Origin: Rhizaria sp. SCN 62-66
Taxonomy: Eukaryota
Reading direction: 5' to 3'
Length of the DNA stretch: 64,000 nucleotides
Assembly: GCA_001724265.1 (NCBI GenBank)
Contig: MEDY01000049.1
Span: 1 to 64,000 of the forward strand
Made by a program: the position numbers and the translations under genes. Under the pieces are notes generated by a model, which was given only the letters and a program-made list of their open reading frames with translations, made no database searches and was not told the DNA's origin. Positions 912 through 46,269 of this stretch are shown here, in pieces; position 1 is the stretch's first letter; the number at the start of each line of letters is the position of its first letter.

Positions 912-3900
912 TTAGTAGTAACCTTCCCAAGCTCCCATATCTTTCCTCACATAGTTACTATCTTGCTGCTGCTGCTGTGGCTGCGGTTGCGAGTATTTGC
1001 TTTTGCTGCTACTGCCAACGTTGGCGTTCGCACCGTCAGCTTCACTGTTGCTCACACCTTTGCTCGTCTTGGTCTTGGCGTTGTTGCCGCGCGCTTGCCC
1101 GTCGCCGTCGGACTCTTCTGAGTCGCTCTCGTCTAGGACATGACCGAGCAGCCCGCCGTTACTTCCGCCAAACATGAGCAGGTTGGCCGTGCTATTGTTG
1201 TTGCTGGTGCCCTCACCAGTGCGACTCGCCTGCGAGATCGACCGCGCCCTCACGCGCTCCAGCTCTTTCAGCAGCGGCGACTCGAACCCCCTCCGGTCGA
1301 ACAGCCCGCCCGCGCCGCCGCCGCCGCCCTCGCCGTGCTCCTCGCCGTGATCGCTCTCCTCCCAGATGCCCAGCCCGGCCCCCGCACCCGGCACCGGCAG
1401 CGGCCCCGGCGAGTCGCGCGGGATGCCGCCGTGCAGGCGCAGACTCAGGTTCGAGCTGCTGTTGCGGCTGCTGCTGAGCGCGGAGGGCGGGCCGCCGGGG
1501 CCAGACGGGGACGCGAGCCGGCTCTGGTTCCGGCTCTGGCTGCGGCTCTGGTTCTGGCTCTGGCTGCTGCTGTGGATGTTGCTGTGGCTATGGCTGTGGC
1601 CGTGAGTGGAGTAGTTGCCGAAGCCCGGGACGCCGGGCACGCCGTGCACGCCATGGGCGGGGCTGTGGTGGGGCGGGGAGCGCAGGCCGCGAGTGAGCAG
1701 CAGATGCGACTGAGAGTGCGGCTGCTGTCCTTGCCAGAGATCAATCTCAACTTCCGTACCTTGTCCCGTCGCTGTCGGTGCATTTTTGTTGTCCAGCGAG
1801 GATGAGTTTGGCAGCGCACCCGCGGGCAGTGCCAACGCACTGCCGCTGTTAGAAGGACTGTTCGCCACCGTATTGCCGGTGGTGTTGGAGATGATTGCGG
1901 CGTACGTGTCGCCGAAGCTCTTGGGGAAGTGTTTCTTGCCAGTCCCAGAGCTCACCGGCGTCGGCGGCTTCGGGGACTTGGTGAATCCGCTGCCATTGCC
2001 GCCATTGGCGTTGCCCACAGTCAGTCGGCTGCCGTCCGCGGCGCCGGTCGCCCCGCCGGCCCCAGTGTGCGAGACCGGGTCTGGGATGGTCACCGTGAGC
2101 CCCATCGCGTTGAAGCCACCGAGACCACCACCAGCGACGCGCGCGGGGGGCGGGCTCAGCAACGCGGGGCTGTGTCCCAAACCGCTAGCAACATCACCTG
2201 CGATAGGAGCGGTGCCGTTGGTGTTTGCCTTGTCACTGCCGCCGCCAATGCTACCGACGTTGTTGCTTGGGTTGGGATTGTTGTTGTCGGTTGGCGAGGA
2301 CATCGTCATTGAGAGCGTGAGCTTTGACGCTGGATCATCGCGTGGCGGTTGGTGCGGCTGCACTTGCGACTGGTGCTGCAGTGACGGCTGCTGAGGGAAA
2401 TACGGCGCCTGGTGGCTGGCAGCGTGCAGCATAAGGCCGGGTCTATTCAGCATCGCCGCTGGGGTTGACGTCATACCGTGCGGCAGAGCATTGGCGACGA
2501 TAGCCGACGGGTGAGCTGGGCTGGTGTTGGAGACGGCGCCGGCGCTGGTCGCACCGTTCGGTGTGTTATTAGCCGGGCCAGTCACCAGTGAGAGCGTACT
2601 AATGCTGTTGCTGTTGCTGTTAGCGATTGCGTTGTTGTTGGCAAAGATCCGCGGGTCCGCCTGCGACTGTGGCTTCAACACCGGCAGCGGCATCGGCGCG
2701 CCGTCGTCCGTCATCGACGTCATGTTGTCGCGGCTGTGGTGGTAGTAGCCCGTCGCGTGACCCTGAGTCGCGCCCACAACAGCTCCAGCGCCGCCGTGGC
2801 GGCCGCTGGCCGCGACGTCGTGGCTGCTCGACGTGTTACTGTAGTTGTGGCTGTTGTGGCTGTTGATGTTGCGCTGCGACGACAGGTCGTGGCCCGAGGA
2901 CGGCGCTTCGGCGACGGTAGGCAGCACCGTGAACATGCTGTGCGTGGACAGCAGCTGGCCCAGCGAGAGGCTGTGTGCGTTGTCGTCGTTCTCGTCGTTA
3001 AAGTCTGCGTGAGCGTCGCTGCTGGTGTTAGGCGGGGCAGTGATTGAAGGGCCATTGCGGGTCGCGGTGTTCTGTTGCTGCGGCTGCGCTTTGACTTCAC
3101 TTAGGCCTTTGTTGCCCTCACGACTTGCGTTCAGGCTCTCGCTTCTGGCGTTGCCACTTTTGCTAGCAGTAAGATTAGTGCCGGATGCAAGCGGCGAGGA
3201 CGCCGGGGACTGTTGCGGCAGCAGCATCTTGCCAACGCTCTGCATCTGGCTCAGACTCAGCGCTGTCACGCTCCGCCGGGAACCCGTTTTCCTGGAAAGA
3301 TTTCCTGCAATCAGGCCGACCCCGCTGTTATGACCGCTGCTGTCGTTGCCGCCGCCGCTGCTGTGGGTGGAGCTCACGTTGCGCATCTCCGTGCCAGCGC
3401 CGGCGCCGCCGATCGCGAGGGAAGAGGGCGGCCTGCTGGCGCTGGTTGCGGCCGCCGCGGCGAGCGACGACGTGGGTCTGCTCGTGTTCGCGGACGTCGA
3501 CCCGGACACGGTGGCCGAGCCCGAGGCCGTCGCCAGGCCAGAGCTGCTTGAGCTTGAGCTCATCGCAAAATCGCCCTGCGACTGCGTGGCCGCAGCGGCA
3601 GCCGCCGCAGCCGCTGCTGCTGCGACAGTAGTCTTGACCGCCCTGGCGCCAGCGGCAGTTGCGGTCGCGTTTTGCCGGATCTTCCCCTTCTCGGAGACGA
3701 CTCCGTCGGCGCTTGTGGTCACGTTGCTCATCGCCCCAGCTTCACCGTGCTGCTGCTGCTCCTGCTGCTCCAGGTGCTGCTGCTGCGAATGGTCGTGCGA
3801 CTGGTCGTGGTCCCTGCGCCGGCCCGGCGACGAGAGCGCGACCGACACGTTGCCGCTGAGACTCACCGACAGGCGTGGGGACGCTTGTGGCGAGCCCGGC

Positions 3901-28180: not shown

Positions 28181-28576
28181 GGGTCAAGCTGGTGGTTAAG
28201 GTTGAGACGGTGGCAGGGAGTGGAAAGCGGCATGCAAGGCGAATCGTGAGAGGTGTGATCTGAGTGGCCTGTAAAATAAATGGTATGAATTAATATATCA
28301 CAGGCGTTGGTATAATATATGCATGCAAGAACAAGCTTAGCGATCAGAAACATTCCCAATATCTTATCCTATTGAAGCCTTCTTTCCGGTGTTTGGACGG
28401 TCGGGCCGAAGGCTCGGCCAACGGTATGGCTGACCGTGAGCAAGATGAACGAACAGCCAATCTTCAGCAGCCTCTAGCGCTCCCAATCTTTCGTCAATCT
28501 CATTGTTCTCAAATTATACTTGTTAAAGCAATTTAAATTATTGTCTTGTTCTTTAATACTTCCTACTGTTTTACTT

Positions 28577-41332: not shown

Positions 41333-42153
41333 TCCTGCTTTTGTTGTTGTTATTAAATATTAACCTATGAATGTAATACTAATAGGCCTATTTTGCGATG
41401 TGAACGAATATTTGACTGCCAGAATTTAGTCTTGATTATCAATACAGCTGTTTTATTTTGACTTTGTTCAGTTCAGTCCATCCATTTTTCGTTATGTCCA
41501 AGCCAGAGTTGTATTAAATTTGGTTTTGAGCAAAGTGCAATGCGAGGCAACATTGACAAGAAATACAATAATCAAATCAAAAAATATACAAGATATAACA
41601 TTTGCAACTCTTTTTGGGGTGAAAAGTTGAGCTAGATGTACTAGTACCAACATACGTACGTGTTACGTGTATTAATATTAATACCAATAAGCTTATTTTT
41701 AATAGTAGTAATCAGCAAGAAACACACACTTGACCATGCGGTCATCTGCTTTTTGTGTTCTTTTCACGCTGGCTGTTTATATGTTTTGTGCATATCTTGA
41801 GTGATTTCAAGCAATGTCTGTGACATGCATGCACCCGATCACCAGGCTTCCTGAGCCGAACACGCTGCTAATAATACAGTGTTTTTCTCTGTTTCTTGGA
41901 CAGCTTCGCAAAATCAAGGAAGACAATTAGGTAAGATAATCTCGATGACATCTCCATATATCCAACTATAAACCAGCATAATTGATATAGTTCACCTTTT
42001 TGATTCTCATATTCAAACTTAACTTTGTGTATCAAATTTGGGGTCTTGTAAACATCACACTGAATCTTCCGCTGCTAACTTGCACAACATCTCGTACCCT
42101 GTTGTGAAGGACTCAAAGGCAGGGAACTAAGGCAAAAGCAGACGACCCACGGG

Positions 42154-44931
42154 ATGTCAAGTAATAATGCTGTTGAATTGTGCGTATCTGATCAGGGTAC
42201 TGCTGCGCGTGAAAGCATGAGTGGTAGCGACTTTCACGAGACCCTGAGCATACCCAACCTGCCGTTTTCGGACTTCCGCATTGTCGATCTGGCTGACCGC
42301 GGTGGCTATTCAGCCGTCTATCGCGCTGTCTACACACCCAGCGGCGGCAAACCAGCCACTGTGGCGCTCAAGGTGCTAAACGCACATGCTGATATCATAC
42401 ACAGCAATAAGGCTGTCATGGGTGAGTTGCAGATTCAATACGGACTGCGATCAACCCATGTTGTGCGTTGTCACGGTGTCACTGTGACAAAAACAATGAC
42501 TGGCGCATTCACCAATGGAAAAACCACTCCAAATGTTGATGGTAGTGGTGAAGACAAGTTCGTGATCGTGATGGAGTACCTCTAGGGTGGCTCGCTCAGT
42601 CGGCTTCTGGCACACCCCAAATACCGCACATTATCTAGCGAGGCACGCGTTTGGCTGGCAAAGCAAGTCACGAGCGCGGTTCGCACATTATCTGCTCAAA
42701 ACATTGTGCACGGAGACATTAAACCCTTGAACTTCCTCTGGGGTGTCGACGCCGATGACACGCGGCCGCTTGTCAAGATTTCCGATTTTGGCAACTCGAA
42801 GCTTCACGCGACGATGATGAGCATGTCAATTGCGCTTTCTACGAGTACGCCAGACTCTCACAATGTGCAATAGCCTTGAATATCAGCATTACGGTTGCGT
42901 TGATCTTGGTTTTATTTCACACTTGCAAGTTGTATCCATATGTTCTTTCTTCATTTGCACCCGATCTTAGACTCAGTCAACGGTACGGTGTCCTGTATGG
43001 CTCCGGAGTTGCTCACTGGCCGTTATCAACATAACTCAAAAACAGATATCTATGCTTTAGCAATGACGCTGTTTGAAATTGCATTTGGCGTCACGCCTTT
43101 TCTGCGCATGTCGAACAGTTCCATCATGGCATTGGTCACCAGTGGCAGCCGGCCCACGCTCGACATCACAGATTACAATGGCGACGCGCAGCCTGAGTTG
43201 CTGCCTGGCACAGCACCCTCGCCAGAAATCACCGCGCTAATTCGCGACTGCTGGGATGGTGAGCGTGACCGGCGGCCGTCGATCGACACGATCGTTGATC
43301 GGCTCGAAGCCATGCCAAGCGATGAAGTCGCTGAAGTCGCTGCTCGCAACTTCATGCTGCACGTCCTCGGACGCGAGCCGTCCGCACAGCTGCAACAGCA
43401 GCAGCCGCGCGTACCTCCGCATGTGCCCCCGCGGCCGGCTATGAAGCCAGCGCCAAAGCCCAATCCGATTGCGGCTCCATCAGATTCATCTCACGGCTCA
43501 CAAACTTCCGAGGAGTGTTCGACTGCTTTGCGGAATACCCAGGACGCGGGTTTCGCATCACAAGTTGTGTCAGCCCCTTCTTTGGCTGCAAATAATTTGG
43601 TATTGCCTTCGCCTGCGCTATCTCTTGTAGCATCGACGGAGAGTCCGTCCTCCGCATCATCATGTCTGTCAGCTTCTCGGGCCGAGTCCAGTAGTTCGGG
43701 AGACTCCGCTGCTTCTACAACAGCTCTGCGTGATCACTTGTTGCAACAACAACTTGATCTTGTGCTTATCCCGTTGAGGGCACCTGCACCTTCCGACCAG
43801 GCAGAGGAGCTGTATGCTACAGGGTTGGAGCTGGTTCGGAAAAGCCCTCAGGGCTACGAGTTGTTAAGGGGTATCGATACACTTGCCCAGGCAGCCAACA
43901 TGGGCCATCAGGACGCCATACGCTAGACAGTACTGTTTTGTTCGCGGCCGCAACATGGAAAGTACAATATCCCACTTGCAATGAGGTGGATGAAAGGGCT
44001 GGCTAATAATAGTATAAGTGGCTGCTACGAGTACGGACTCTGGTTAATGGCGCGGCAACTCAATCTTGATGAGGCCGAGGTCAACCTGCGCCGTGCTAGT
44101 AATGCTGGACACCCACGGGCTGATGGTGCGCTTGCAGCTCTTGATGCGCTCCGGATTGAAACAGATGCAGTGACAGATCTGAGTGATAGCCAACACAAAG
44201 AGCTCGTAACGCGTCTTCGCTCGGGCGTCCAGAGCGGTGATCCGGCAGCCGCGTACATGCTGGGTCGTGCAATGTACAACGGTTATTTGGGTCTCTCGAA
44301 GGACCAAGATACTGGCCATGCGTTGATGATGCGTGCAGGTCGGGCCACCGAAGGCGAGTACTTCTACGGCCCCGCAGCGGCTTATTACAGCCAGAACGGG
44401 AAATCTTTGCCGCACACAATAGCGGCGGCCGAGGCTGGGGTCGTGGAGGAACAACTGTGGCTTGGCAAGCACCTCACCGAGACCGGGAGTGATGTCGAAG
44501 GGTTGGGGTGGCTGCACGTCGCTGCTGACGCGGGCAACGTGCATGCGTTGATTCGACTTGCTGAGATCAGCTACAACGGACGCTGTGGCCAGCCAGTAAG
44601 CAAGGAGAACTCGTACCACTACGCAGTGCGTGCTAACGCAACAGGTCAGCCGGAGGGTGTAGCTGAGCTCGCAATGCACTACATCCTGGGAGTGGGTGTG
44701 GATGCGAATCAGGAGCTCGGCGTTCGATTGCTGCAAGATACTTCAACACGCACGGAAAATAACGAGGCAATATATTTGTTGGCTATATGCTACATCAACG
44801 GCTGGGGAGTTCAGCGTGACATCGAGACCGCGAAAACGTGGTTGAGGCGGACTCGTGAGTATCCCAAGGCACAACGCATGCTGTTCAGGATTGAGTGGTC
44901 TTCAAGTGACTTCACTACCAAGGTCTTCTGA
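42154..44931 (+). CDS. Tyrosine-kinase-like (TKL) protein kinase with C-terminal Sel1-like repeats (~883 aa, 2 exons, two in-frame TAG)
   Basis: Exons 42154-42844 and 42971-44931; intron GTACGC...TTAG, phase 1. Motifs RGGYSAVY, VALK, VMEYL*GGSL, IVHGDIKPLN, KISDFG, GTVSCMAPE, DIYALAM, CWDGERDRRPS. Sel1 repeats (AAYMLGRAMYNG, ALIRLAEISYNG, AIYLLAICYINGWGVQRD). TAG at 42583-85 and 43924-26; stop TGA. The 5' end may extend further upstream. Confidence 0.88.
42583..42585 (+). other. In-frame TAG at the kinase hinge (MEYL*GGSL), inferred Gln
   Basis: ATG GAG TAC CTC TAG GGT GGC TCG CTC. The catalytic loop and DFG follow in frame. Confidence 0.85.
43924..43926 (+). other. In-frame TAG inside a Sel1 repeat, inferred Gln
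   Basis: GHQDAIR*TVLFCSRPQHGKYNIPLAMRW: 18 open codons link it in frame to ORF 43981-44931. Confidence 0.8.
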
Positions 44932-45630: not shown

Positions 45631-46269
45631 TCAGTCGACTTTCTTGCTTCCGCCGGTGCCAGTCTTCTTCACACCAACACTCGCACCCGCACTGCCGCTA
45701 CTCTCCAGCACCTCATTCCTCGACGCGCTACTGCTCTTGGCCTCAACAGCGCCGTCGGTGGACTTAGCAGCCTTGGCAGCCTTGGCCGCCGCGTCGGCCG
45801 CCGCGAGGTCCCGTTCCATCCGCGCCTCACGCGCCTCGATCTCGGCCTTCTCCGCCGCGCTCAGCGGCTTGCTCGCCGCGGCGCCGGCGCCGGCGCCATT
45901 GTTGAACTGCGAGAGGTCAATGGGCGCAAAGGCCTTGCCGATGAAGAAGCGCACGACGGCCTGGCCTAGCTGGTTGGCCACGGCGGTGAAGAGATCGCGA
46001 TCGTAAGAGCCCTAGGAGAACCAGTTGAAAAGCAGCGAGACAAGAAAGCTGCTGCCGTACATGTAGTACACGTCGCGGTCCTTTGACGTAGCGAGCGCGA
46101 CGAGGGAGAGCAGGACCCAGAGCGCGAGCGTGGCGTGCTGGCAGTGTAGGAAGACGCTCCACGCGTAGACCTGGCTGTCGTAGAGCAGCACGGCTGTGAG
46201 GATGAGCGCAAGAATAATGCCGTGGAGGCCCATGCCAAACAAGGCAAAGACAAGGCGGTGGTCGACCAT
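45631..46269 (-). CDS. Small multi-pass membrane protein (~212 aa) with a charged C-terminal tail; one in-frame TAG
   Basis: MVDHRLVFALFG... has about three hydrophobic segments, then NWFS*GSYDRDLFTAVANQLG joins ORF 46269-46012 to ORF 45981-45631 in frame. Stop TGA. The start codon is uncertain because an upstream intron is possible. Confidence 0.7.
46012..46014 (-). other. In-frame TAG, inferred sense (Gln)
   Basis: TGG TTC TCC TAG GGC TCT TAC GAT CGC; coding-type GC3 codon usage continues on both sides. Confidence 0.75.

Follow-up and report, generated by a model that had tools for sequence, protein, structure and literature searches.

UAG as a probable glutamate codon, with UAA and UGA as stops, in the nuclear genome of a putative deep-branching heterolobosean

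Nuclear codes in which only UAG has become a sense codon have been described in Iotanema spirale (Gln), the rhizarian exLh (Leu) and Scotinosphaera (Ser), as well as in phyllopharyngean ciliates (Leu, Gln) and in Protocruzia tuzeti (Gln) (PMC5304391; PMC11687900). UAG as Glu is listed in PMC11687900 only alongside UAA as Lys or within codes that read UAR as Glu. Nuclear codes that separate UAG from UAA are rare, and the described ones that were found read UAG as Leu, Gln or Ser or have recoded UAA too. Two further papers provide comparison literature (PMC9437880; PMC10770858).

The code analysed here has in common with the UAG-only codes a sense UAG, the stops UAA and UGA, and a CUA tRNA. It differs from them in residue (Leu, Gln or Ser there, probably Glu here), in lineage, and in frequency, UAG being present in most genes there and in about one fifth of long ORFs here. 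In Iotanema, Thr32 of eRF1 is changed too, to Gly there and to Ser here. Codes with UAG as Glu offer a second comparison. In the oligohymenophorean ciliate with UAA as Lys and UAG as Glu (PMC10553269), the CUA tRNAs are likewise derived from tRNA-Glu, whereas UAA is sense and 10 CUA tRNA genes are reported there, against a terminating UAA and one such gene here. Peritrichs and Blastocrithidia read amber as Glu, as here, within UAR=Glu codes (PMC11687900; PMC12153298); UAA and UAG are coupled in them, whereas UAA terminates here and no UUA tRNA was found.

We put the probability at about 0.74 that this nuclear code reads UAG as Glu and retains UAA and UGA as stops; that UAG is a sense codon of this nuclear genome, whatever its residue, we regard as nearly certain. 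The code probably works like that of Iotanema, of which it would be a new, early-stage variant that has Glu for its residue. UAG as Glu with UAA as a stop was not found in the literature searched, which took in few subscription journals and left one paper on heterolobosean codes uncovered. Non-canonical codes in Heterolobosea are reportedly the subject of Panek et al. 2025, in which Dactylomonas venusta (Selenaionea) is said to read UAG as Gln. UAG would be reassigned in that organism too, and it probably belongs to the same phylum, but its residue is reportedly Gln and it is placed in Selenaionea, in contrast to the Multisulcus-like 18S rRNA described below. That work could pre-empt part of the novelty.

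The window (the whole 64,000-nt stretch of DNA analysed, G000:C49:1-64000) belongs to a eukaryotic assembly of 34.9 Mb in 714 contigs. A preliminary description had reported an in-frame TAG at a kinase hinge, upstream of HGDIKPLN and KISDFG, and translation of window:42571-42870 bears this out: MEYL*GGSL, HGDIKPLN and KISDFG follow one another in a single reading frame, and the stop within the hinge is TAG. No listed ORF covers 42586-42844, as had been noticed, because this stretch is flanked by the TAG on one side and by a predicted 126-nt intron on the other. With TAG treated as X, the kinase profile matched exon 1 (Table 1), and the remaining kinase and the Sel1 repeats followed in exon 2; both exons together encode 883 aa when TAG is counted as sense. 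Specifically, exon 1, with a predicted start ATG at 42154, carries a degenerate Gly loop, the VALK lysine, the alphaC Glu, the hinge, HGDIKPLN and DFG. The residues of the kinase superfamily are all present (Lys, alphaC Glu, catalytic Asp/Lys/Asn, DFG and APE), and the deviations are HGD in place of HRD and Asp in place of the first Gly of the Gly loop. The TAG at 42871-73 lies inside the predicted intron and is non-coding, and the paralogues L002 and L003 are broken at the same place as this intron. RNA contigs covered the intron and the hinge TAG unreliably, and no spliced read turned up among them. Known proteins with kinase and Sel1 repeats (Pfam PF00069/PF07714, PF08238) have the same domain layout and the same catalytic motifs, and the TAG codons are the sole oddity of the window gene, which is an ordinary member of a family expanded in this genome.

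Table 1. Positions of the features discussed; coordinates without a contig or locus label are those of the window.
Feature	Position	Strand	Evidence or remark
Giant low-complexity ORF, 8296 codons	912-25802	minus	no TAG
Giant low-complexity ORF beside the kinase gene, 4295 codons, ends TAA	28445..41332	+	open only with TAG as sense
Exon 1, TKL-like non-RD Ser/Thr kinase	42154..42844	+	Pkinase 73.4 bits, E=2.6e-20 (TAG as X)
Hinge TAG, in frame; sense codon, probably Glu	42583..42585	+	sequence; also in run X4 contig
Catalytic loop HGDIKPLN	42709..42732	+	translation
DFG motif	42784..42792	+	translation
Predicted GT-AG intron, 126 nt, phase 1, phase-matched	42845..42970	+	sequence, frame arithmetic
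Exon 2: APE, kinase C-lobe, low-complexity linker, Sel1 repeats, TGA stop at 44929-31	42971..44931	+	Sel1 40 bits, Pkinase 38.5 bits
Second in-frame TAG of the kinase gene; GAG (Glu) in another allele	43924..43926	+	T>G at 43924, runs X4 and X5
TAG inside a gene of unknown family that ends with TGA	46012..46014	-	coding-like on both sides
Giant low-complexity ORF, 3777 codons	52232-63565		no TAG
In-frame TAG of the eRF1 gene, at human position 107	L038:1592-1594, G000:C63	minus	gene ends TAA
tRNA gene, anticodon CUA, tRNA-Glu body	G000:C84:76008-76080	minus	pattern search, ARAGORN
Kinase-Sel1 paralogue L172, pseudogene	G000:C148:57600-59100		frameshift, in-frame TGA, TAG at invariant Trp column
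Divergent 18S rRNA gene	L105:1501-5945 (G000:C706)		four group I intron matches

The runs in which the kinase gene was found come from bioreactors, wastewater and sludge. One of them, X4, belongs to another study and has a contig that spans 41400-43391 with two differing letters, none of those listed at the hinge TAG; because the TAG recurs there, an assembly error is unlikely. The view that an intact kinase is read through, rather than a pseudogene decaying, is supported by purifying selection 3' of the TAG. Against paralogues, dN/dS downstream of the TAG was 0.09-0.34 in 8 of 10 comparisons, dS being saturated in the remaining two and high in all. Moreover, 14 of 34 allelic changes in exon 2 were synonymous (15 if TAG is Glu), with synonymous sites making up 25%, giving an allelic pN/pS of 0.42-0.47 (P=0.011-0.027). 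The run X4 contig also carries a 5-nt insertion after 42389, upstream of the hinge, which creates a frameshift allele. This allele and the one broken paralogue (L172) indicate that the kinase-Sel1 family turns over, and they speak against an important role for the window kinase itself.

The cause is broader than the preliminary description saw, in that UAG is reassigned genome-wide. A codon-phase model was trained on 142 long standard-code ORFs from a 776-kb sample, about 2% of the genome, to which three contigs contributed 600 kb and the window and 30 kinase loci the remainder. Among stops preceded by coding sequence in this sample, coding continued 3' of TAG in 14/24 cases, against 2/64 for TAA and 1/40 for TGA (3/104 together; Fisher p=6e-10). 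Terminal-looking stops, defined by the model rather than by annotation as having no donor motif and an AT-rich 3' flank, accounted for 15/74 TAA, 8/58 TGA and 0/35 TAG codons (TAG versus 23/132 for TAA and TGA combined; p=0.005). Under a looser end filter 6/35 TAGs passed, with 3' flanks all at 47-65% GC, and two of the six lay within giant ORFs in another frame. UAA and UGA are used at gene ends, UAA being the commonest stop, and no terminal TAG, as a context-dependent stop/sense code would have it, was seen in the 776-kb sample, which is small. Reading TAA, TGA or TAR as sense was also tried and rejected, as the real ORFs of the window gained nothing from it.

TAG is the rarest codon, with 31 occurrences among 146,553 codons (~0.02%), distributed over 21 of 100 long ORFs. 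The same ORFs contain 5,333 Glu and 5,150 Gln codons, so that TAG amounts to ~0.6% of the Glu codons; seven of the 31 TAGs (L122, minus strand) probably belong to a shadow frame and were kept in the codon count and in the context test below. Within the window, the 4295-codon ORF carries TAGs at 28475, 29156 and 32720, the first of which may precede the true start. All three giant ORFs are intron-free and rich in Ala, Ser and Gly.

Genuine in-domain TAGs were found in the genes for eRF1, UBE2J1, SUV3, MetRS, a Ras-like protein, a ubiquitin-like protein and five kinases. An uncritical count of TAGs within domain matches was rejected, since most proved to be intron acceptors or intronic. On this ground, judged by eye from pyrimidine-rich flanks, L075, L076, L077, L078, L080, L166, L167, L190, L192, L193, L194, L199 and the first TAG of L191 were dropped before the Pfam test. 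In searches of the genome itself, no TAG fell within matches to ABC (0/20), AAA (0/22) or WD40 (0/149) domains. The SUV3 gene (L195, G000:C129) is split at its TAG into P0367 and P0368 in public proteins, and both halves are 100% identical; public protein sets thus cut genes of this organism at TAG.

The CUA tRNA gene is single-copy in the assembly. A broader pattern yielded no second CUA tRNA, the other five matches not being tRNAs, and no UUA tRNA was present among 13 UUA-pattern matches (8 via ARAGORN; 5 being Thr, Lys or Pro tRNAs), although such pattern searches miss long introns and odd T loops and the assembly is possibly incomplete. Among 43 other distinct ARAGORN calls, the nearest to the CUA tRNA was tRNA-Glu(CTC), with 47 of 73 letters alike, against 33 and 29 of 73 for the Gln tRNAs. 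Of the 32 letters that make up its acceptor (5' and 3' parts) and T arm, the Glu tRNAs share 26 and 25, and the Gln tRNAs 14 and 13. The Glu-like acceptor start, T stem and purine discriminator are presumably GluRS identity features. The folding energy was unremarkable (MFE z=-1.0). Pyrrolysine was rejected as the residue, because the ARAGORN label only echoes the CUA anticodon and the tRNA body is Glu-like. Three Glx-tRNA synthetase genes were seen in the genome, and alignment of GluRS revealed no interpretable feature.

The release factor is also altered. T32S and G57S affect positions occupied by T and G in 117/117 eRF1 homologues, and T58K a position with T in 116/117. The nearest homologue, P0005 (84%), keeps T32 and G57, has K58 in common and carries V at 107. 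According to Panek et al. 2017 (PMC5304391), Thr32 forms a bond with the G in the third position of UAG, and Iotanema has Gly in its place; this T32G is tied to UAG as Gln (PMC5304391; PMC9161772), and standard-code relatives of Iotanema are described as retaining GTS (PMC9161772). A metagenome scan for eRF1 relatives returned only the same gene and three distant ones. A TAG is expected by chance in ~9% of cases in a gene of the length of eRF1, and the idea that this in-frame UAG works as a negative-feedback switch, should UAG termination be leaky, is speculative and doubtful.

Several observations bear on the residue. The TAG/GAG pair at 43924 (runs X4 and X5) is the only allelic partner seen. 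Four TAG columns were sampled, two dominated by E and two by D. At eRF1 position 107 the homologues have E 106, D 10, V 1 and Q 0 (n=117), and in the kinase L176, where TAG stands at the conserved hinge Glu, 28 rows from the same genome include E 17, D 5 and Q 0. The UBE2J1 column contains D 37, N 32, E 8 and Q 0 (n=120), and the SUV3 column D 94, E 10 and Q 6 (n=147). As for the starred column of the window hinge, E does occur in 6 of 28 other hinge-like rows from the genome (Q in 0/28), but the column is variable, and the site alone therefore cannot name the residue. The six TAG columns of the kinase-Sel1 family are mixed, one being a W column (the broken C148 copy) and one mostly Y.

In the Pfam test, ten readings were compared at nine in-domain TAG sites and the bits summed; two genuine sites, in the L002 kinase and at the MetRS edge (L146), stood outside it, as did the Sel1 sites. 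Glu scored highest (562.9), followed by Q 558.9, K 557.4, D 556.2, R 552.9, S 552.4, A 551.4, Y 543.8, L 540.2 and W 538.5. The lead of Glu is 4 bits over Gln, a single site contributing 2.4 of these, and at least 19 over L, Y and W. UAG is unlikely to stand for Leu, Tyr, Trp or Ser.

The best-surviving alternative is that UAG is sense but means Gln, with GlnRS charging the Glu-type amber tRNA or with a Gln-type CUA tRNA absent from the assembly; we consider this unlikely. Gln is the runner-up in the Pfam test and ties or leads at four of the nine sites, some TAGs sit within poly-Q tracts, the TAG site of a ubiquitin-like gene (L185) is Q in the ubiquitins of the same genome, and UAG alone has become Gln several times in evolution (PMC11687900). 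Gln is also favoured by the neighbour-context test, in which the 31 TAG sites gave E minus Q = -17.6, on a scale where true Glu codons score +32 to +42 (sd 8) and true Gln codons -43 to -56 (sd 18-19). This result speaks against Glu, except if many of the TAGs stem from CAG>TAG mutations that occurred recently in sequence under no constraint. It may well be mutation-driven, as CAG would be the easiest source of rare TAGs in giant low-complexity proteins; because CAG>TAG is a transition, Gln contexts would be expected under either meaning. Against Gln, the sole CUA tRNA found is Glu-derived, Q is missing from three of the four deep columns (0/117, 0/120 and 0/28), and the only allelic partner observed is GAG.

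Less probable still is an ambiguous UAG, for which a suppressor tRNA competes with a partly terminating eRF1, both full-length and truncated proteins are made, and selection keeps TAG rare. The codon counts given above, set against UAG in 78-91% of genes in UAG-recoded ciliates (PMC11687900), fit this picture, as do the one copy of the CUA tRNA, the hydroxyl retained by T32S and TAG contexts that resemble a mix of mutational neighbours. However, TAG lies inside presumably essential or single-copy genes (eRF1, UBE2J1 and SUV3), a public contig (L184, which may come from the same sample) also has the eRF1 TAG, and no gene end at TAG was seen in the sample. A standard code, under which the kinase copy would be decaying after a nonsense mutation, show gene-specific readthrough or undergo RNA editing (e.g. 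to UGG), is very improbable: a frameshift allele, a broken paralogue and the many apparent in-domain TAGs that are intron acceptors would suit it, but it is opposed by purifying selection 3' of the hinge TAG, by TAGs in eRF1, UBE2J1, SUV3 and other kinases, by the CUA tRNA and the eRF1 changes and, for editing, by Trp as the worst of the ten Pfam readings and a TAG at 43924 unchanged in a contig of the poly(A) run X6 (a run that may be DNA).

Under the preferred Glu reading, UAG would have moved from stop to sense in the nuclear genome while UAA and UGA kept stopping. T32S would loosen the contact between eRF1 and the last base of UAG, its third-base G, while the CUA tRNA, probably charged by GluRS, would pair through C34 with UAG and not with UAA. 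The window kinase would then be a full-length protein of 883 aa with the hinge MEYLEGGSL. UAG may have been dropped as a stop before its capture as a codon; codon capture fits because TAG is still very rare.

On the assumption that the rDNA contig belongs to the same organism, the 18S rRNA suggests a deep-branching heterolobosean close to Multisulcus. An extra hairpin lies between helices 17 and 18 (helix 17_1, L105 ~2013-2032). By eye, this stretch is far closer to Multisulcus malaysiensis than to Psalteriomonas or Pharyngomonas, and helix 18 shows clear differences from M. malaysiensis (Fig. S1b of PMC12328842). Helix 17_1 is given as a marker of Tetramitia, and Multisulcus as a separate deep branch, in section 3.4 of the same paper; neither UAG nor stop codons come up in its main text. 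A rhizarian identity (Rosculus/Sainouroidea), suggested by the habitat, was rejected, the Rosculus genome having 37.7% GC (PMC10770858) and helix 17_1 fitting Tetramitia. Primer matches were weak, with one of six exact. The first 18S insertion (~2090-3000) contains an ORF, which we take to resemble a homing endonuclease.

Ubiquitin (L186, L188 and L189) is unusually divergent, with Gln at 28 and 46 and a protein that begins MSMQIF; these are monomer genes with a short tail, and no polyubiquitin junction was seen there. In L185 (G000:C681:2600-3600), the TAG-bearing ubiquitin-like domain is fused to an unassigned C-terminal part with a coiled-coil-like end; this gene, on an AT-richer contig, is possibly mobile. 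The two top matches of a tubulin search were a gamma-like and a divergent tubulin, and no clear alpha- or beta-tubulin was among those inspected, suggesting that multicopy genes are under-assembled.

On balance, we lean towards an undescribed code that reads UAG as Glu, stops at UAA and UGA, and is still close to its origin in a deep-branching heterolobosean, with a single tRNA-Glu(CUA) gene, a T32S that is absent from the nearest sequenced relative, and UAG still segregating against GAG. If true, UAG as Glu with UAA as a stop would be a new code table. With its natural combination T32S/G57S/T58K, this eRF1 becomes a direct candidate for a release factor blind to amber. The known cases are far advanced, with UAG in most genes, whereas UAG is rare and polymorphic here; because of this, and because the GTS motif is still the normal one in a close relative, codon capture and an ambiguous intermediate could be tested against each other within one lineage.
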